Shown piece by piece: positions 9,872 to 60,638 of a DNA stretch of 64,000 nucleotides. The notes under the pieces are model-generated. The model saw only the letters and a list, made by a program, of their open reading frames with translations, had not been told where the DNA came from and did not search any database. This stretch comes from Labilithrix sp. (GTDB lineage Bacteria; Myxococcota_A; Polyangia; Polyangiales; Polyangiaceae). Every line of letters starts with the position of its first letter. The first letter of the stretch is position 1. The translations under genes and the position numbers were made by a program. The stretch lies in contig JAHCIY010000002.1 of assembly GCA_026128965.1 (NCBI GenBank), positions 1,384,108 to 1,448,107 of the forward strand, given 5' to 3'.

Positions 9872-10192
9872 ATGAGCGAAGCGACCGCGACGTTCCCGAT
9901 GTTCGAGCCCGCCCCCCGCCGCAAGTCCGCGGCCCCGGCCTGCCTCGTCGTCCTGCTCGCGATCCTCGCGGTGGAGCTCTGCCGCCTCCTCGCCGCGACC
10001 CCAGAGCTCCACCGCGCGACGCCCGAGACCCCCGACGTCGAAGCGATCCCGATCGCCCCCATCGACGCCCCCGCCCACGCCTTCGTGCCCCTCGAGCCCG
10101 ACACGCCCCTCAAGCGCGCCCCCACCCGCCGCATCGCAAAGAAACAACCCCCGCGCCCCGACGACGTCCCCTCGACCCGCGACATCTTCTAA
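9872..10192 (+). CDS. Hypothetical small membrane protein
   Basis: ATG ORF with one hydrophobic segment (ACLVVLLAILAVEL). No recognisable domain. Directly precedes the repeat element. Confidence 0.3.
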   Translation: MSEATATFPMFEPAPRRKSAAPACLVVLLAILAVELCRLLAATPELHRATPETPDVEAIPIAPIDAPAHAFVPLEPDTPLKRAPTRRIAKKQPPRPDDVPSTRDIF

Positions 10193-10204
10193 CCCCCACC
10201 CCCA

Positions 10205-10455
10205 CCCGCGATCGCACCCCCTCCCACGCAGCCAGCACCGGCTAAAGCTCGAAGCGGCCGCGATCGCAGCCCCCTCCCACGCAGCCAGCACCGGCTGAAG
10301 CTCGAAGCGGCCACCGCGAGCGCAGCCCCCTCCCACGCAGCCAGCACCGGGGCCCCAGAAGCGGCCGCGCAAGCGGTTGCGAAGCAACCCGAGCGCGCAG
10401 CGCGAGGGCCGTGTCTGGGGTGGGGGTGTCGGGGGCGAAGCCCCCGACGTTGAGT
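10205..10455 (+). repeat. REP/MITE-like palindromic element (copy 1) with three ~57-nt direct sub-repeats
   Basis: Three copies of gcagccccctcccacgcagccagcaccgg.taaagctcgaagcggcc. This is followed by the core ggggccccagaagcggccgc...cgcgagggccgtgtctggggtgggggtgtcgggggcgaagcccccgacgttgag, which contains the perfect hairpin gtcggggg-cgaag-cccccgac. The same core occurs at ~29794, ~44208 (inverted) and ~60480. Confidence 0.8.
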
Positions 10456-10634
10456 TGAGTACGGGAATGGGAGCCGCCGGCGAGGGTTCTCTCCCCGGCG
10501 CGCGGCCTGGGCTTTGGGGCTCGCTGCCCCTGCGGTTGACCCCCCATGGGGATTCGACTAACTCCCCCCGACCTCCCCCGGATCGGCTCGGTTTTGGGCT
10601 CTTTTTTCGGGGAATTGCGGAGTATCGCGATCCG

Positions 10635-11051
10635 ATGTCCTTCTCCTTCCAGAACGTCCCGCCCAAGCAGGGCACGCCCGGCGTCGAGGCCCCCGCCCCC
10701 GCGGGCGGGCAGCAGGCCGCCCAGCCCCCCGGCGGGAGCATGCTCACCATGCTCCTGCCGATCCTCATCCTCGTTCCGTTCCTCTTCATGAGCTTCCGGC
10801 GGAACAAGAAGGAGGCGGAGGCGCGCAAGAACCTGAAGAAGGGCGACAAGATCGTCACCCAGGCCGGCCTCATCGGCGAGCTCGTCGAGCTCGACGAGCG
10901 CGTCGCGAAGGTGAAGATCGCGCCGGGCACCACCGTGTCCGTCCTCGCGAGCTCGGTCTCGTCCTACGACGCCGCGCCGGCGTCCGCGAGCAAGACCGAC
11001 AAGGAGCTCGCCGATCTCAAAGAGGCGAAGGCGACCGCCGACAAGAAATGA
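10635..11051 (+). CDS. yajC: Preprotein translocase subunit YajC
   Basis: ATG at 10635. TM segment followed by the YajC signature KKGDKIVTQAGLIGELVELDERVAKVKIAPG. Lies upstream of secD/secF. Confidence 0.85.
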   Translation: MSFSFQNVPPKQGTPGVEAPAPAGGQQAAQPPGGSMLTMLLPILILVPFLFMSFRRNKKEAEARKNLKKGDKIVTQAGLIGELVELDERVAKVKIAPGTTVSVLASSVSSYDAAPASASKTDKELADLKEAKATADKK

Positions 11052-11072: not shown

Positions 11073-13151
11073 ATGACCAGCTCTCAGCGTAACTCCTTCA
11101 TCGTGATGGCCGTGGCCGGCGCCGCGGGCTACGCGTTCTATCGCGCCGACAACTTCTGGGGCCTCGTCCTCATGGGCCTCACCGTGATCTGGGCCATCAT
11201 CACGGCGCTGCCGATCATGGACAGCACGTGGCGCTTCAAGGTCGGCTTCGTCGCCGCGACCTTCTTCGGCTCGATCGTCTGCCTCTTGCCGACGTTCGAA
11301 GACCTCTCGCGCGCCAAGGACGGCACCGCGAGGTTCAAGTGCCCGACCTACGTGCGCGATCGCATCGAGTTCGGCGTCGTGAAGGGGCTCGACCTCCAAG
11401 GCGGCCTCCGCCTCGTCTACACGGTCGAGGTCGAAGAGGCGCTCCGCGACAAGCGCGACAAGTTCGCCGACGACATGCGCCAGGACCTGGCGACCTCGTA
11501 CAAGATCCACACCGGCGAAGGCCTCCTCAAGCTCCCCGAGCTCAAGCAGCTCGAGGAGAAGGTGCACATCTTCACGCCCGAGAGCGCGCTCCTCCGCATC
11601 AAGTTCGTCAACCCGGCGGACCTGTCGATGATCGACCAGCGCTTCAAGGAGAAGTTCGCGAAGGAGCTCGCCGAGGTCCGCACGAGCGAGCCGGGCGAGG
11701 TCGTGTTCAAGCTCCGCGCCGAGCTCGAGACGCAGACGCGCGAGCGCGCCGTCACGCAGGCGAAGGACACCGTCAACCGCCGCGTCGACGAGCTCGGCCT
11801 CCGCGAGGCGAGCGTCACCACGCGCGACGAGGACATCATCGTCGAGGTGCCGGGCTCGAACCGCGCGCAGTTCGAAGAGATCAAGGAGATCATCCGCAAG
11901 ACGGCGCGCCTCGAGTTCAAGATGCTCGACGACGAGGCCGACTTCTTCTCCAAGGTCGACGAGAAGCTGGTGCCGGAGGGCATCGAGACGCGGATCGAGA
12001 ACGCGCCGCTCGGCGAGGTGAACGGGCAGAAGCAGAACGCACGCCGCACCTTCTTCTCGACCAAGATCCCGAACGAGTTCGAGGGCAAGAACGTCAAGGA
12101 GGACGAGGTCGCGCGCACGAAGGCGATGCAGGCCGCGCTCGACAAGCTCAAGGCGTTCGTGAAGACGATGGACGTCCCCGACGATCACGTCGTCGGCTAC
12201 GAGAAGACCGAGGACTACGACCCGGACACCGGCAAGGCGACGGAGGACGGCTGGCGTACGTTCTACCTCCGCGCGCGCGCGGACGTGACCGGCGAGTACA
12301 TCACCGACGCGCAGCGCCAGATCGATCAGCGCAGCGGCGTCCCCGAGGTCTACGTCGCGATCACGTTCAGCCCCGCCGGCGCCGACCGCTTCGAGCAGGT
12401 CACCGGCGACAACATCAACCGTCGCTTCGCGATCATCCTCGACGACGTCATCAACTCGGCGCCGGTCATCCGCTCCAAGATCGGCGGCGGCCGCGCGAGC
12501 ATCACGATGGGCTCGGGCGATCAGGACCAGCAGCTCAAGAACGCGGAGAAGCTCGAGATGGTCCTCCGCTCCGGCGCGCTCCCCGCTCCGATCCAGCTCT
12601 CCAACGAGTCGATCATCGGCCCCACCCTCGGCGAGGACGCGATCGCGAAGGGCGCCATCGGCGCGGTCGCGAGCGGCATGCTCGTCCTCGTGTTCATGTT
12701 CATCTACTACCGCAAGTCCGGCCTCGTCGCCGACGCGGCGGTGCTCTTCAACCTGCTGTTCCAGCTCGCGATCCTCGCGTCGTTCAGCGGCACGCTCACG
12801 CTCCCCGGCATCGCCGGCCTCGCGCTCACGATCGGCGTCGCGATCGACGCGAACGTGCTCATCAACGAGCGCATCCGCGAGGAGCTGCGCCAGGGCAAGA
12901 GCGTCCGCGCCGCGGTCGACGCCGGCTACGACAAGGCGTTCACCGCCATCGTCGACGGCCACGTCACCATGTTCATCTCCGGCCTCATCCTCGCCCAGTA
13001 CGGGACGGGTCCGGTCAAGGGCTTCGCCGTGACGCTCATCATCGGCATCATCGCGAGCCTCTTCACCGGCGTGTTCTGCACGCGCCTCGTCTTCGACTGG
13101 TGGGTCCGCGGCGCGAAGGTCAAGCGGCTCAGCGTCGGCGCGGAGTTCTGA
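11073..13151 (+). CDS. secD: Protein translocase subunit SecD
   Basis: 692 aa. N-terminal TM, large periplasmic domain, C-terminal 6-TM SecD/SecF region. Typical yajC-secD-secF order. Confidence 0.9.
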   Translation: MTSSQRNSFIVMAVAGAAGYAFYRADNFWGLVLMGLTVIWAIITALPIMDSTWRFKVGFVAATFFGSIVCLLPTFEDLSRAKDGTARFKCPTYVRDRIEFGVVKGLDLQGGLRLVYTVEVEEALRDKRDKFADDMRQDLATSYKIHTGEGLLKLPELKQLEEKVHIFTPESALLRIKFVNPADLSMIDQRFKEKFAKELAEVRTSEPGEVVFKLRAELETQTRERAVTQAKDTVNRRVDELGLREASVTTRDEDIIVEVPGSNRAQFEEIKEIIRKTARLEFKMLDDEADFFSKVDEKLVPEGIETRIENAPLGEVNGQKQNARRTFFSTKIPNEFEGKNVKEDEVARTKAMQAALDKLKAFVKTMDVPDDHVVGYEKTEDYDPDTGKATEDGWRTFYLRARADVTGEYITDAQRQIDQRSGVPEVYVAITFSPAGADRFEQVTGDNINRRFAIILDDVINSAPVIRSKIGGGRASITMGSGDQDQQLKNAEKLEMVLRSGALPAPIQLSNESIIGPTLGEDAIAKGAIGAVASGMLVLVFMFIYYRKSGLVADAAVLFNLLFQLAILASFSGTLTLPGIAGLALTIGVAIDANVLINERIREELRQGKSVRAAVDAGYDKAFTAIVDGHVTMFISGLILAQYGTGPVKGFAVTLIIGIIASLFTGVFCTRLVFDWWVRGAKVKRLSVGAEF

Positions 13152-29793: not shown

Positions 29794-29898
29794 GGGGCCC
29801 CAGAAGCGGCCGCCCCAGCGGGCGCGAAGCGCCCCGAGCGCGAAGCGCGAGGGCCGTGTCTGGGGTGGGGGTGTCGGGGGCGAAGCCCCCGACGTTGA
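29794..29898 (+). repeat. REP/MITE-like palindromic element (copy 2)
   Basis: ggggccccagaagcggccgc…cgcgagggccgtgtctggggtgggggtgtcgggggcgaagcccccgacgttgag is near-identical to the core at 10346-10455. Confidence 0.8.
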
Positions 29899-29951
29899 GA
29901 GACCTCTTTCCGAATGGCGCGGAGAAGGGTATGGTCCCCGGTCGACACCAC

Positions 29952-30025
29952 GGTGGGTGTAGCTCAGTCGGTAGAGCGCTGGATTGTGGTTCCGGTTGTC
30001 GCGGGTTCGATCCCCGTCACTCACC
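29952..30025 (+). tRNA. tRNA-His (anticodon GTG) with genomically encoded G-1
   Basis: Manual fold. Acceptor GTGGGTG/CACTCAC. D-arm GCTC/GAGC. Anticodon stem CTGGA/TCCGG with loop TTGTGGT (GTG). T-arm GCGGG-TTCGATC-CCCGT. Extra 5' G pairs with discriminator C73. CCA is not encoded. Confidence 0.85.
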
Positions 30026-30032
30026 CCGCAAC

Positions 30033-43448: not shown

Positions 43449-44195
43449 ATGACCACGTCCGCCGAGCCCCGGCCCGCAGCTCCCGTCAAATACAAGCGGA
43501 GCATCAAGAACTACCTGCTAGACGCGAGGTTCCAGCTCAAATGGACCGGGCGCATCATCTTCGTCGCGCTCTTCATCAGCGCGCTGATGGGGTTCCTCCT
43601 CTTCCGCACGAGCGACAAGCTGACGGAGCAGAGCCAGCAGGTCATCGCGCAGGGTGAGAAGCAGATCGCCGAGAGCGAGACGAGCGCGAAGATCGTCGCG
43701 ATGCAGATGGCGGAGAAGTACGCGGACGAGCCGGCGCTCGCCAAGAACTTCAAGGACGAGGAGGACAAGCGCATGGCGGCGCTGCAGCAGCAGCGTGACG
43801 ACCTCAAGGCGCAGGCGCTCAAGACGGCGGAGCAGCAGACGACGATGAAGGTCACGCTCGTCGCAGGCCTCCTTCTCCTCGTCGTGCTCATCGGCATCCT
43901 CGGCATCTTCTTCACGCACAAGGTCGTCGGCCCGATTCACATGATGAAGATCCTCCTTCGTCAGGTCGGCGACGGAAAGCTCAACTTCCACCGCAAGCCC
44001 CGCAAGGGCGACGAGCTCCAGGACTTCTTCCAGGTATTCGCCGAAATGGTCGAAAAGCTGAAGGCCCGCCAAGCCGAAGAGGTAAAGACCCTCGAAGCCG
44101 CGATGGCCGAAGCCAAGGCAACCGGCGCCAGCGACGCCGCAATCGCGAAGATCGCCCTCGTCCGCGACGAGATGCAAGCCGCCCTCGGCAAGTAG
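43449..44195 (+). CDS. Two-TM membrane protein with HAMP domain
   Basis: TM1 IIFVALFISALMGFLLF. Coiled-coil periplasmic segment. TM2 LVAGLLLLVVLIGILGIFF. HAMP segment THKVVGPIHMMKILLRQVGDGKLNF. No output domain. Confidence 0.6.
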   Translation: MTTSAEPRPAAPVKYKRSIKNYLLDARFQLKWTGRIIFVALFISALMGFLLFRTSDKLTEQSQQVIAQGEKQIAESETSAKIVAMQMAEKYADEPALAKNFKDEEDKRMAALQQQRDDLKAQALKTAEQQTTMKVTLVAGLLLLVVLIGILGIFFTHKVVGPIHMMKILLRQVGDGKLNFHRKPRKGDELQDFFQVFAEMVEKLKARQAEEVKTLEAAMAEAKATGASDAAIAKIALVRDEMQAALGK

Positions 44196-44207
44196 TCTTT
44201 CACGGTC

Positions 44208-45235
44208 AGGGGCTTCGCCCCCGACACCCCCACCCCGCGAACACGGCCCTCGCGCTGCGCGCTCGGGTTGCTTCGCAACCGCTGTCGCGGCCGCTTTCGC
44301 GGGGCCCCGGTCCCGCTCGCAAAGCCGCTCGCGCACGGCCCTCGCGCTGCGCGCTCGCGCACGGCCCTCGCGCTTCGCTCGGGTTGCTTCGCACCCGCTT
44401 TCGCGGGCCCGGTCGCAAGCCGCTCGCGCAGCGCGCTCGCGCACGGTCCTCGCGCAGCGCGCTCGTGTTGCTTCGCGCCCGCTGTCGCGGCCGCTTCGCG
44501 GGGCCCCGCTCGCAAGCCGCTAGCGCTCGGCGTGCACGCCGTGCGCGCTCGGTGGTGGGCGCAAGCCGCTCGCGCACGGTCCTCGCGCAGCGCGCTCGTG
44601 TTGCTTCGCGGCCGCTTTCGCGGGGCCCCGGTCGCAGGCCGGCCGCGCTCGGCGTGCACGCCGCGCGCGTTCGGTGGTGGGCGCAAGCCGTTCGCGCTCG
44701 GTGGCGGCTGCGACCGGTCGTGGGGCGCAAAGCCGCTCGCGCTCGGTGGTGGGCTCGGCGCGCCCGCTGTTCGCGCTCCGTAGCGCTCGGGCGTCCGCCG
44801 TTCGTGCTCGGTCGTGGTCGTCGGTCGCCAGCCGTTCTCGCTCGGTGGGGGCTCCGGCACAGCCGGTCGCCTCGGTCATGGGCGCGTTCGCGTTCGCGCT
44901 CGTGGGGTCGCCCAGCCGTTCGCCTCGGTCGTGGGGTCCGCCGGCGGTCGTGAGCCGTTCGCGCTCGGTCGTGGGGGCGCCGGTCGCCAGCCGTTCGCCT
45001 CGGTCGTGGGTGCGCCGGCGGTCGTGAGCCGTTCGCGCTCGGTCGTGGGGGCGCCACCGATCGCCAGCCGTTCGCGCTCGGTCGTGGGGGCGCCACCGAT
45101 CGCCAGCCGTTCGCGCTCGGTCGTAGGGTCGCCACCGATCGCCAGCCGTTCGCCTTGGTCATGGGGGCCGCCGGTCGTGAGCCGTTCGCCTCGGTCGTGG
45201 GGTCGCTGCTGGTCGTGAGCCGTTCGCGCTCGGTC
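44208..45235. repeat. ~1-kb noncoding tandem-repeat array seeded by an inverted REP/MITE-like element
   Basis: Begins with the inverted core (ggggcttcgcccccgacacccccacccc…gggttgcttcgcaacc). Followed by about five decaying partial copies. Then ~10 tandem 39-nt units (ccgttcgcgctcggtcgtgggggcgccaccgatcgccag) with point variants. Units lack unique spacers, so it is not a CRISPR. Confidence 0.8.
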
Positions 45236-45648
45236 GTGGGGCGCGCGGCACGGACAGGCGGGCCACGGGCGCAGACGCGGCGCCGCGGGAGGGACGCCGC
45301 ATCTACGTGCGCTTTCTTTAGGCGCGCACGACTCTCCAGTTCGCTGCGACGCCTTCGGTATGCGGCGTCGCGAGGATCTGCCTTTCGCTCCGCATCGCGC
45401 CTGCATCCCAGCCACCGATCCATTCCCGAGTCCACCACCCAGCCCCCAGCATCCGAGTCGCCGCACGCTCCACCGCAAAGCACCCGCACGACGGCCGCTC
45501 GGCCCTCTTCGCGGGCGTCCGACTTCCGCGTTCGGTCGCGAGCGCAGATGCGGAGCGCGCCGCTGGAGCGGGCCTCTGCACGTCGGGTGTCGGGTTCGTG
45601 CGTGTGGGTTTCACGCAACTTCGCGGTGCGGCGACCGAGCAGCGCGCG

Positions 45649-46128
45649 ATGACGCATGCATCGAAGCCGTCCGGCGACGCAGCGGCCTATGAGCGCGCCG
45701 AACATCCCGCGGCGCGCGAACCTCCCGTTGCGCGTGGCGAACGCTCCGCTGCGCGTGGCGAACGGTCTGCGGTGAGGAGCACCGTGTCGGTTGGGCGTGA
45801 GTACGAGGATGCTGCGGTCGAGGTCCTGCGGGGGGCGGGCTTCGAGGTTCTCTGGCGGAACCTGCGTATCGGGCACCTCGAGGTCGACCTCGTCGCGCGG
45901 CGCGATGACCTCGTGGTCATCGTGGAGGTCCGCTACCGCGGCGGAAGTGCGCTCGACACGGCGCTCGCGAGCGTCACACGACAAAAGCGCGCGCGGCTAC
46001 TCCGCGCCGCTCGCGGCCTCTGGCGCGGGCGCCTGAGCAAGATGCAAGGCATCTCCCGAGTCCGCCTCGACGTGATCGCGATCAACCCCTCCGGCACGAA
46101 GTGGATTGAAGGCGCCTTCACGGAGTAG
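45649..46128 (+). CDS. YraN-family (UPF0102) endonuclease
   Basis: GREYEDAAVEVLRGAGFEVLWRNLRIGHLEVDLVARRDDLVVIVEVRYR matches the YraN core. Start uncertain (ATG 45649 or GTG 45772). Confidence 0.7.
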   Translation: MTHASKPSGDAAAYERAEHPAAREPPVARGERSAARGERSAVRSTVSVGREYEDAAVEVLRGAGFEVLWRNLRIGHLEVDLVARRDDLVVIVEVRYRGGSALDTALASVTRQKRARLLRAARGLWRGRLSKMQGISRVRLDVIAINPSGTKWIEGAFTE

Positions 46129-59836: not shown

Positions 59837-60445
59837 ATGTCCGCGAACCCGTCGTCCTCCCAGGTCGCTCCGCCGCGGCGCCTCTCCGACGAGGAGTGGG
59901 CCGCGCTGCCGGAGGACGTCGACGGCGAGCTCGTGGACGGCGTCTTGGTGGAGGAAGAGGCGCCGGATTATGCGCACGAGGCCGTCGTCGTTTGGCTGAT
60001 CTACGTGCTCGCCGGCTGGACGCGCTCCCACGGTGGGATCGTCGGTGGCTCCGAAGCGAAGTTCGTCTTGCAGCGCGGTCGTGGGCGGAAGCCGGACCTC
60101 TCGATGTTTCTTCCCGGGGGAGCGAAGCCGCCGCGTCGCGGCGCGGTTCGAGCTGCACCCGACCTGATGGTGGAGGTCATCAGCCGCGCCTCGCGTGACG
60201 TTCGACGCGACCGCATCGAGAAGATGGACGAGTACGCCGCCTTCGGTGTGCGCTGGTACTGGCTCGTCGACCCGGAGGCGCGGACGTTCGAGATCTACGA
60301 GCGGACCGAGGCCGGCATCTACGCGCGCGTCGTCGGCGCCGCGGAAGGCCGCATCGATACCGTCCCCGGACTCGCCGGCCTCACCCTCGACCTCGACGAC
60401 CTCTGGTCCAAGGTCGACGAGCTCCCGGAAGAAGCCCCACCCTAG
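59837..60445 (+). CDS. Uma2-family (DUF820) endonuclease
   Basis: PDYAHEAVVVWLIYVL…RKPDLSMF…PDLMVEVISRAS…DRIEKMDEYAAFGVRWYWLVDPEARTFEIYER matches the Uma2 pattern. Confidence 0.8.
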   Translation: MSANPSSSQVAPPRRLSDEEWAALPEDVDGELVDGVLVEEEAPDYAHEAVVVWLIYVLAGWTRSHGGIVGGSEAKFVLQRGRGRKPDLSMFLPGGAKPPRRGAVRAAPDLMVEVISRASRDVRRDRIEKMDEYAAFGVRWYWLVDPEARTFEIYERTEAGIYARVVGAAEGRIDTVPGLAGLTLDLDDLWSKVDELPEEAPP

Positions 60446-60479
60446 ACCCGCTCGCGCGAGCTCATGTCAGAGATGGCCC

Positions 60480-60638
60480 ACGCGAACGGGGCTGGGGTGT
60501 CGGGCCGAAGCCCCGACGTTGAGAACGGGGCCCCAGAAGCGGCCGCGAAAGCGGGCGCGAAGCGCCCCGAGCGCAAAGCGCGAGGGCCGTGTCTGGGGTG
60601 GGGGTGTCGGGGGCGAAGCCCCCGACCATGAAGAGACT
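60480..60638 (+). repeat. REP/MITE-like palindromic element (copy 4; two hairpin cores)
   Basis: A degenerate core gtcgggccgaagccccgac is followed by a full core …cgcgagggccgtgtctggggtgggggtgtcgggggcgaagcccccgac. Confidence 0.8.

Follow-up and report, generated by a model that had tools for sequence, protein, structure and literature searches.

REP-type repeats have been described chiefly in Proteobacteria and are associated with RAYT transposases, which are IS200-like, and REP/BIME sequences reach more than ~100 copies per genome. Definitions of REPs and a table of their consensus sequences, including the GT[AG]G leader, are available (PMC2817692). Relaxase-less oriT mimics and oriT-only islands are known (PMC4652767, PMC8136818 and a bioRxiv 2026 iOriT preprint), and for plasmid CloDF13 PMC5935869, citing Nunez & de la Cruz 2001, places the nick at GGGTG/GTCGGG. 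In this study, we report a myxobacterial repeat that has the lifestyle of a REP, but whose conserved core is the hairpin recognised by conjugative relaxosomes. We interpret it, with moderate confidence, as a non-autonomous REP/BIME-like mosaic repeat in which a Labilithrix-specific structured module is joined to a relaxase-type hairpin core. No description of such repeats was found in the literature searched, which contained no paper on the hairpin sequence itself and nothing matching on dispersed oriT-like repeats.

The window, i.e. the whole 64-kb stretch of Labilithrix DNA that was analysed, has a G+C content of ~70% and carries four full copies of the repeat, each made of a 100-nt core and a ~10-nt tail (~110 nt in total). 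There are also three partial modules, a single degenerate copy and two arrays of tandem repeats. Folding of the core yields a four-way junction, after which come a G-rich leader and a 9-bp hairpin. The features mapped in the window were as follows.

10205-10350, plus strand: 53-nt tandem repeat, 2.7 copies (TRF period 53, 92% matches, score 246)
10349-10458, plus strand: copy 1, full element (covariance match 10349-10448, 111.8 bits)
10352-10359/10414-10421, plus strand: outer stem of copy 1 (from the fold)
10361-10366/10407-10412, plus strand: inner stem of copy 1 (from the fold)
10367-10374 (P1), 10375-10389 (P2) and 10390-10406 (P3), plus strand: mini-hairpins of copy 1 (from the fold)
10417-10427, plus strand: G-rich leader of copy 1 (from the fold)
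10428-10448, plus strand: oriT-type hairpin of copy 1 (from the fold)
10449-10458, plus strand: tail of copy 1, GTTGAGTTGA
29794-29903, plus strand: copy 2, full element with tail GTTGAGAGAC (covariance match 29794-29893, 105.7 bits)
29953-30027: tRNA-His (ARAGORN)
44195-44308, minus strand: copy 3, full element, inverted (covariance match 44205-44306, 94.8 bits)
44205-44225, minus strand: hairpin of copy 3, with a G·T wobble in the stem
44355-44418, 44442-44495 and 44581-44622, minus strand: three partial four-way-junction modules in tandem (covariance matches of 22-30 bits, model positions ~7-70; repeat family D8)
44906-45244, no strand assigned: 39-nt tandem array, 8.9 copies (TRF score 410)
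60442-60522, plus strand: degenerate, 5'-truncated copy (covariance match 60442-60517, 16 bits; leader-plus-hairpin scan; alignment)
60527-60637, plus strand: copy 4, full element with tail CATGAAGAGAC (covariance match 60527-60626, 110.7 bits)

A repeat family at four loci had been proposed in a first-pass annotation of this DNA, and both the probe scans and the covariance model bore it out, far above chance. Within the window, a 25-nt hairpin probe gave four matches at <=3 mismatches against 0.00 expected, a 24-nt core probe gave five against 0.01 expected, and covariance model R1, built on three copies, recovered exactly four full copies at 95-112 bits. The leader-plus-hairpin sites of the window number five. 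The two cores that had been placed at 60480-60638 proved to be one full copy and the degenerate copy at 60442-60522, which begins at the stop codon of the Uma2 gene and in which the leader, a hairpin of 6 bp (60495-60520) and the tail GTTGAGAAC are preserved. Three sub-repeats of ~57 nt had been noted at copy 1; the repeats are present, but their period is 53 nt and they amount to 2.7 copies. This array adjoins the 5' end of copy 1, and its unit consists of ~35 nt of C-rich flank and, at the unit end, a diverged form of the first ~18 nt of the element. The terminal hairpin is missing from all three partial modules at 44355-44622. The 39-nt array shares a 1.4-kb gene-free spacer with copy 3, and its kinship with the element is unproven.

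The GC3 profile and Pfam analysis of the flanking genes confirmed that every window copy is intergenic. Copy 1 is flanked by a hypothetical ORF and yajC-secD, while copy 2 starts 21 nt past the stop of a PLD-like gene and ends 50 nt short of tRNA-His. Copy 3 lies between the gene for a 248-aa protein and yraN (UPF0102), and copy 4 lies between Uma2 and a TPR protein gene, ending 40 nt ahead of the ATG of the latter. The gene beside copy 3 had been called a HAMP gene, and Pfam detects no HAMP domain in the 248-aa protein. The GC3 profile is flat over 44200-45750, with no gene called between the 248-aa gene and UPF0102; a 592-aa ORF at 44206-45984 on the minus strand was rejected as coding because of this flat profile and because its stop is made by the G·T variant of the hairpin. 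A phmmer scan of the window and the fetched loci for Uma2 showed no enrichment, and a Uma2 homologue search yielded no paralogue from the source genome among the matches listed.

The upstream gene has the same orientation as the element at three of the four window copies and, according to rough gene calls, at the majority of copies across loci. Many copies either occupy the spacer between convergent genes or have their end 9-20 nt away from a convergent gene's stop. The copies lie at gene 3' ends as REPs do, which supports the REP-like reading of the first-pass annotation. In copy 3 and in a second locus (L035, which carries the terminal module without the four-way junction in an rpoA-rplQ spacer) the tail ends ...GAGAC|TA, so that its last base falls within the complement of a TAG stop; in copy 3 this is the stop (44193-44195) of the convergent 248-aa gene.

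Labilithrix relatives have kept the order of the genes around copy 3, but the spacer between the 248-aa gene and UPF0102 is highly variable. It measures 1.4 kb in the window, with copy 3 on the minus strand, and 107 nt in L086, where it is filled by one plus-strand copy. The orthologous spacers of L087, L088 and L089 (35-680 nt) lack the element, as do those of the two closest relatives, L095 and L096 (83-85% protein identity). The element has therefore been gained or lost at this site, and its absence in five relatives together with its opposite orientation in one shows that it behaves as mobile DNA. Further full copies occur at unrelated sites in Labilithrix sp. STL-MYX21 (L030, n = 2) and on a metagenome contig (L066), and these homologous copies at non-orthologous sites of Labilithrix-type genomes (L030, L066 and L086), together with the terminal-module variant of L035, uphold the earlier view of a dispersed family over one of local duplication. 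Copy number is uneven among relatives: L086 has one site, three other orthologous loci of 20 kb have none, and STL-MYX21 has only ~3 copies genome-wide. A metagenome scan with the 21-mer of the P3 hairpin returned L066 as the only true homologue, the rest being mostly chance coding matches and unrelated palindromic repeats, and viral contigs scanned with both modules gave no matches.

The first module of the element is a lineage-specific 70-nt four-way junction composed of an outer stem, an inner stem and three mini-hairpins. All copies share one fold. The outer stem has 8-10 bp (CCCCAGA/TCTGGGG) and the inner stem has 6 bp (GCGGCC/GGCCGU). The mini-hairpins are P1 (CCGC-NNNN-GCGG), P2 (GGKYGC-GAA-GCRMCC) and P3 (CGAGCGC-GMA-GCGCGAG, with tandem G·A mismatches), and their loops are GNA or GNNA, of the GCGAAGC / GCGNNAGC type. 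The second module comprises the G-rich leader (GGGGTGGGGGT) and the terminal hairpin, TGGGGGTG-TCGGGGGC-GAA-GCCCC(C/T)GAC, followed by a short conserved tail of ~10 nt with the consensus SNYGARAGAC. The hairpin had been described as a perfect 8-bp stem with a 5-nt loop in each copy; its arms GTCGGGGGC/GCCCCCGAC form a 9-bp stem around a GAA loop, with GCCCC(C/T)GAC as the 3' arm, and the 8 + 5 reading is obtained only if the closing C-G pair is ignored. Nor is the stem perfect throughout, given the G·T wobble of copy 3.

The fold is kept by compensatory changes. Pair counts were made on seven copies from three genomes (four from the window, two from L030 and one from L066), in an alignment fitted to the covariance model, which favours the structure; in these, 99.6% of cells pair, and eight pairs show two-sided compensatory changes against a shuffle mean of 3.7, with none of 500 shuffles reaching eight. 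When the 3' partners were slid by 1-3 columns, pairing fell to ~40%. The outer-stem variants AGA/TCT, GCGAA/TTCGC, GGAG/CTCC, AAG/CTT and AGAG/CTCT were seen in the raw sequences. An eighth copy, that of L086, brings a third variant of P2 and has the tandem G·A mismatches of P3 deleted on both sides. The G·U pair of columns 14/65 is invariant in the seven copies. As RNA, the element folds at -65 to -68 kcal/mol (z = -2.6 to -4.3). The covarying four-way junction and the oriT inverted-repeat match of the terminal hairpin, described below, had both been missed in the first-pass annotation.

The strength of the covariation, and the fact that the invariant G·U would become an A·C mismatch if the other strand were read, raise the question of whether the element is a structured RNA family, i.e. 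a 3'-UTR or cis-regulatory element or a small RNA, which would work at the level of transcripts, for example by blocking exonucleases, by being processed or by binding a protein, with dispersal as DNA being secondary. We consider this unlikely. The tandem G·A mismatches and the GNRA-like loops do lie on the same strand, and this G-rich strand is the better RNA folder by 4-9 kcal/mol (-66 to -68 vs -56 to -63 kcal/mol for the other strand); co-orientation with upstream genes also predominates. The genomic evidence points the other way: the only transcripts near copy 3 and L035 run antisense to them, the copies of L030 and L066 lie in divergent or 5' regions, the genes beside the copies are not related to one another, and the element takes opposite orientations at one orthologous site and is absent from close relatives. 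The loops, moreover, equal the DNA mini-hairpin motifs GCGNAGC and GCGNNAGC, characterised as extraordinarily stable (PMC13037366). Rfam likewise offered no match to the element. At the gathering threshold of Rfam 15 only tRNA-His was found in the window; a permissive search of 10150-10650 gave matches of 16-20 bits against thresholds of 45-62; and at 18 other loci no family covered the hairpin, the matches being tRNAs and a single cobalamin riboswitch, none of them at a hairpin.

Several other identities were rejected. A tRNA-like or SINE origin was set aside, as ARAGORN finds only tRNA-His and the loops have 3-4 nt, and a retron ncRNA was set aside on the Pfam assignments of the genes flanking the four copies, which are not reverse transcriptases. 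The terminator role that had been suggested did not hold: tails such as GTTGAGAGAC supply no U tract after the hairpin, and a terminator scan placed none in the elements. The MITE reading also failed, the 5' end GGGGCCCCAGAAGCGG being unrelated to the reverse complement of the 3' end GTCTCTCAACGTCGGGGGC, and no direct repeat that could represent a target-site duplication being present around any of the four copies.

The terminal module (TGGGGGTGTCGGGGGC-GAA-GCCCC(C/T)GAC) matches the nick-proximal inverted repeat of ColE1-, CloDF13- and MOBQ-type oriTs, the leader and hairpin having the sequence found beside the nick site in ColE1-, CloDF13-, R64/NikA- and MobA/MobL-type mobilisation systems. 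The 23-mer GGGGGTGTCGGGGGCGAAGCCCC was found at 44 loci of ~20 genomes from many phyla in a genome collection of 596 billion bases, in which we estimate at most about one chance match. Its hosts include Polyangiaceae, Labilithrix, Rhodospirillales/Acetobacteraceae, Actinomadura, Frankia, Clostridia, Oscillospiraceae, Defluviitaleaceae, SAR324, Phycisphaerales and beta- and gammaproteobacteria. At all but one of these loci GAC completes the stem (L026 has GAG), and most share the same G·T wobble and have a different hairpin ahead.

At two loci, L045 and L019, the 23-mer immediately precedes an ORF for a MobA_MobL relaxase (Pfam E = 2e-30 and 1e-22, respectively), and L019 has the RSF1010-type motif GTGCGCCCT 50 nt 3' of the hairpin. 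Copy 3 shares 37 identical nt with this relaxase-adjacent site of Tepidiphilus (L019, MobA/MobL), 14 of them outside the search pattern, and the identity takes in the unpaired leader and the G·T wobble. In PLSDB, 396 plasmid records match, of which 344 are typed as 'mobilizable'. The hairpin lies ~50 nt upstream of a NikA-like plus relaxase operon on Azospirillum pAB510e and 74 nt upstream of mobC-relaxase on Acinetobacter pRAY*. On ColE1, on pO26-S1 and the 1.5-kb Col(MG828) plasmids, and on an A. towneri plasmid, it is followed by a second hairpin and GTATnCTGGCTT; this is the bom/nic region of pBR322/ColE1. CloDF13 reads TGTGGGTG|GTCGGGC-GTGA-GCCTGAC, with a G·T wobble at the same position, and its mapped nick falls at the foot of the matching hairpin, in the leader. 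A relaxosome-type feature, i.e. a G-rich leader with an inverted repeat, is thus present in the element: 23-37 nt are identical to sites beside MobA_MobL genes, and the leader and hairpin are near-identical to the sites of pAB510e, pRAY*, ColE1 and CloDF13. Since the unpaired leader and the wobble are held in common as well, relatedness or a common protein partner is indicated rather than convergence on a stable stem.

The match of the terminal hairpin to the oriT inverted repeat points to a relaxase-type partner rather than a RAYT, which bears on a second alternative, that of a classical REP or REPIN whose mobilisation depends on a RAYT (IS200-like Y1 transposase) with a single gene at another place in the genome. 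The short GC-rich imperfect palindrome, the conserved 5' G/T-rich leader, the extragenic location at gene 3' ends and the clusters are all REP-like (PMC2817692), and a RAYT, being typically single-copy, could easily lie outside the searched sequence. The details of the element diverge from this pattern: its leader is GGGTG/GTGT and not GT[AG]G, its clusters run head-to-tail and do not alternate, and its hairpin is identical to relaxase-associated sites. The link to a RAYT or IS200 gene that had been suggested gained no support, as phmmer with E. coli RayT detected no homologue in the window or in 84 loci, and we regard a classical REP as improbable.

Four relaxase queries and two queries for NikA-like/MobC accessory proteins matched only L045 and L019 by phmmer, and neither a relaxase, nor an accessory protein, nor a RAYT was found in the window or in ~0.5 Mb of loci from repeat-rich genomes, so that the enzyme proposed below is hypothetical. 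An all-against-all BLASTP of the ORFs of the 44 hairpin loci revealed no neighbouring gene in common except the two relaxases.

A relaxase acting in trans could also nick and transfer chromosomal DNA at dispersed sites if the copies were orphan or mimic oriTs, for which there are the precedents of relaxase-less mimics and oriT-only islands cited above, and the leader and hairpin do match both the nick region of CloDF13 and the inverted repeats from several types of oriT. An oriT has a second repeat and then its nick site after the hairpin, whereas in the element the hairpin stands at the 3' end, and the element is therefore not a whole oriT. The second repeat is missing from the chromosomal repeats. 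A regex search for the ColE1, RSF1010 and RP4 nick motifs (CTGG|CTTA, GTGCGCCCT and ATCCTG) found none within +/-200 nt of the window or Polyangia hairpins, and only plasmids and L019 had them; a CloDF13-type nick inside the leader itself (GGGTG|) is possible. Conjugation and mobilisation genes are missing nearby, copies sit in both orientations within spacers of housekeeping operons, and a structured 70-nt module, which an oriT does not need, is always attached. On this evidence we hold orphan oriTs to be very improbable.

A purely passive origin, in which GC-rich hairpins prone to slippage were duplicated locally and persisted by chance, with an oriT match that reflects convergence on a very stable simple sequence, is also very improbable, for although the sequence is of low complexity (G runs and a GCGAAGC apex), partial copies in tandem and other tandem arrays surround the element, and the P3 21-mer also occurs in unrelated metagenome repeats, the copies are 14-20 kb apart beside unrelated genes, those of other genomes are at non-orthologous sites, and the compensatory changes, the 37-nt identity across the unpaired leader and wobble, and the 44 loci all speak against it.

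The module of leader and hairpin is not restricted to the Labilithrix element. In other Polyangiaceae, Rhodospirillales, Actinomadura and Clostridia it stands behind different hairpins, at several loci per genome. The JBGANF Polyangiaceae MAG has ~20 loci with the layout of hairpin A, a variable hairpin and then this module, and the same modular arrangement is seen in Rhodospirillales, in Actinomadura and in two Clostridia MAGs. The same core heads different multi-copy repeats in several phyla.

The non-autonomous, REP/BIME-like mosaic repeat remains our preferred interpretation, and the interpretation offered by the first-pass annotation as a whole is partly supported. Copies of either orientation occur in intergenic spacers at gene 3' ends, in most cases occupying the interval immediately past a stop codon. 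The element probably propagates as folded single-stranded DNA by means of a hairpin-specific nicking enzyme acting in trans. This enzyme would be of the relaxase type, or an accessory protein of a relaxase, and not a RAYT, and it would cut the leader at GGGTG|, the position mapped in CloDF13. At its new site the hairpin cluster, which is very stable, probably acts on transcripts by analogy with REPs, as a 3'-end barrier or as a barrier to read-through between convergent genes. Besides the hypothetical status of the enzyme, the missing nick motifs, the 3' position of the hairpin and the low copy numbers in relatives, two observations count against this mosaic-repeat interpretation: the invariant G·U and the co-orientation with upstream genes fit an RNA role equally well, and as single-stranded DNA both strands fold about equally (about -36 vs about -35 kcal/mol).

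A further, more speculative proposal is that the leader and hairpin form a working relaxase nick and recognition site, which would make these repeats a cross-phylum, undescribed class of miniature elements propagated by relaxases or parasitising them; we put this forward tentatively. If it is correct, the repeats would be the conjugation-derived counterpart of the REP-RAYT pair, and their copies might be dispersed chromosomal entry points for transfer. A functional link would mean that a second family of nicking enzymes is able to seed genome-wide miniature repeats, and would connect plasmid mobilisation machinery to chromosome architecture; an oligonucleotide of the element, for which a cut at GGGTG|TC is predicted, would be a concrete substrate. 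Should the link be historical only, a fragment of an oriT would have been domesticated as a stable hairpin element at gene 3' ends.

Compared with known systems, the element resembles MITEs and further small repeats (Correia/NEMIS, RPE, ERIC, MIRU) in being small, non-coding, multi-copy, structured and intergenic, and in copy 3 and L035 its end adjoins or overlaps a stop codon, but it differs from them in lacking terminal inverted repeats, a target-site duplication and any related IS. With the oriT mimics of S. aureus (pWBG749-type) and with iOriT islands it shares a relaxase recognition sequence without a cognate relaxase gene; those are, however, single sites on plasmids or islands with a complete nick region, whereas the element forms ~110-nt miniature repeats without one. 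The likeness to the oriTs of the ColE1 superfamily, CloDF13 and MOBQ is closer at the sequence level, as the leader and hairpin (TGGGGGTGTCGGGGGC-GAA-GCCCCTGAC) are the same and the plasmid hairpin likewise has a variable hairpin ahead, but the element has no second repeat, nick motif or mob genes, is multi-copy in housekeeping spacers, and carries its hairpin at the 3' end.

In its way of life the element is nearest to REP/BIME sequences. It departs from them in its leader, which is GGGGGTG-TC in all copies (GGGTG/GTGT) and not GT[AG]G, in its head-to-tail clusters (44205-44622 and 60442-60626), where REP/BIME clusters alternate, in the 70-nt covarying four-way junction, in that no RAYT was found, and in a hairpin that matches relaxase sites and not IS200-type ends. 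The likenesses are nonetheless extensive: the REP palindrome of 20-40 nt and extragenic location has its equivalent in a 21-nt hairpin with leader, intergenic in all cases; both kinds of repeat consist of a short, GC-rich, imperfect palindrome with a conserved leader on its 5' side that stays unpaired, and both are strictly extragenic, enriched just past stop codons and between convergent genes, present in either orientation, and arranged with other motifs in mosaic clusters; and both are presumed to act as single-stranded hairpins.

In the window, copy 3 of the element lies in a gene-free, repeat-dense spacer, adjoined by yraN:

44196-45600: spacer of 1.4 kb holding copy 3, three partial modules and tandem arrays of 26, 34 and 39 nt
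45598-46128, plus strand: yraN (UPF0102)

The orthologous spacer spans just 35-680 nt in six relatives, compared with 1.4 kb in the window. The plus strand encodes yraN both in the window and at the relatives' loci L088 and L096; at L086, L087 and L089 the minus strand encodes it, a difference between lineages that looks like the inversion of one gene. The simple repeats of Labilithrix-type spacers also differ, with (GTCCTCG)n directly 3' of the orthologous stop codon in L087 (10747-10800), and an array of ~20-nt GCGAAGCGTGTCGCGTGAAC adjoining the element copy on metagenome contig L066 (reverse strand, ~11830-11990).

Two sets of tracts concern the G-rich leader:

10193-10340: C-rich tracts CCCCCACCCCCACCC and CCCCCTCCCAC, near-complementary to the leader GGGGTGGGGGTG
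60527-60600 and 10349-10430: four G runs (GAGGGCC, GGGG, GGGGG, GGGGG)

Tract CCCCCTCCCAC recurs in every 53-nt unit, and both C-rich tracts could pair with the leader across ~200 nt. The G runs extend over the four-way junction's 3' half as well as the leader and hairpin, and a G-quadruplex formed from them could compete with the element fold.

Sequences matching parts of the element also occur elsewhere. Metagenome contigs of the Ga0126336, Ga0126342, Ga0126343, OFHQ01 and OFEP01 sets (L047-L081) carry a multi-copy, AT-rich, near-perfect palindrome of ~110 nt, whose apex is the exact P3 mini-hairpin CCCGAGCGCGAAGCGCGAGGG; this apex is also common to other, GC-rich hairpin arrays (L059/L084 and L064/L083). 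In Labilithrix sp. STL-MYX21 (L035, 6968-7058), the oriT-type hairpin lies antisense in the rpoA-rplQ spacer, and the position of the four-way junction is taken by a canonical terminator that reads GCAGCCCGAAGACCGGGCTGCTTTTT on the mRNA strand. The tail following this hairpin shares a single base with the TAG stop of rpoA, an overlap also seen between the tail of copy 3 and the stop codon of its 248-aa neighbour gene.

Two Clostridia-class MAGs (L024/L032/L041 and L009/L026/L039) contain conserved, multi-copy elements of 200-400 nt with the oriT-type hairpin at their start, followed in the first set by a second hairpin, GGTGTC...TGAC; one element copy among these sets lies upstream of a cobalamin riboswitch. 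The E. coli plasmid pO26-S1 (L090) and ~200 similar Col(MG828) plasmids of 1.5 kb encode a single HTH gene and no relaxase, yet they carry the oriT-type hairpin together with a ColE1-type nick region, and it is presumably because of these two features that they are typed as 'mobilizable'.
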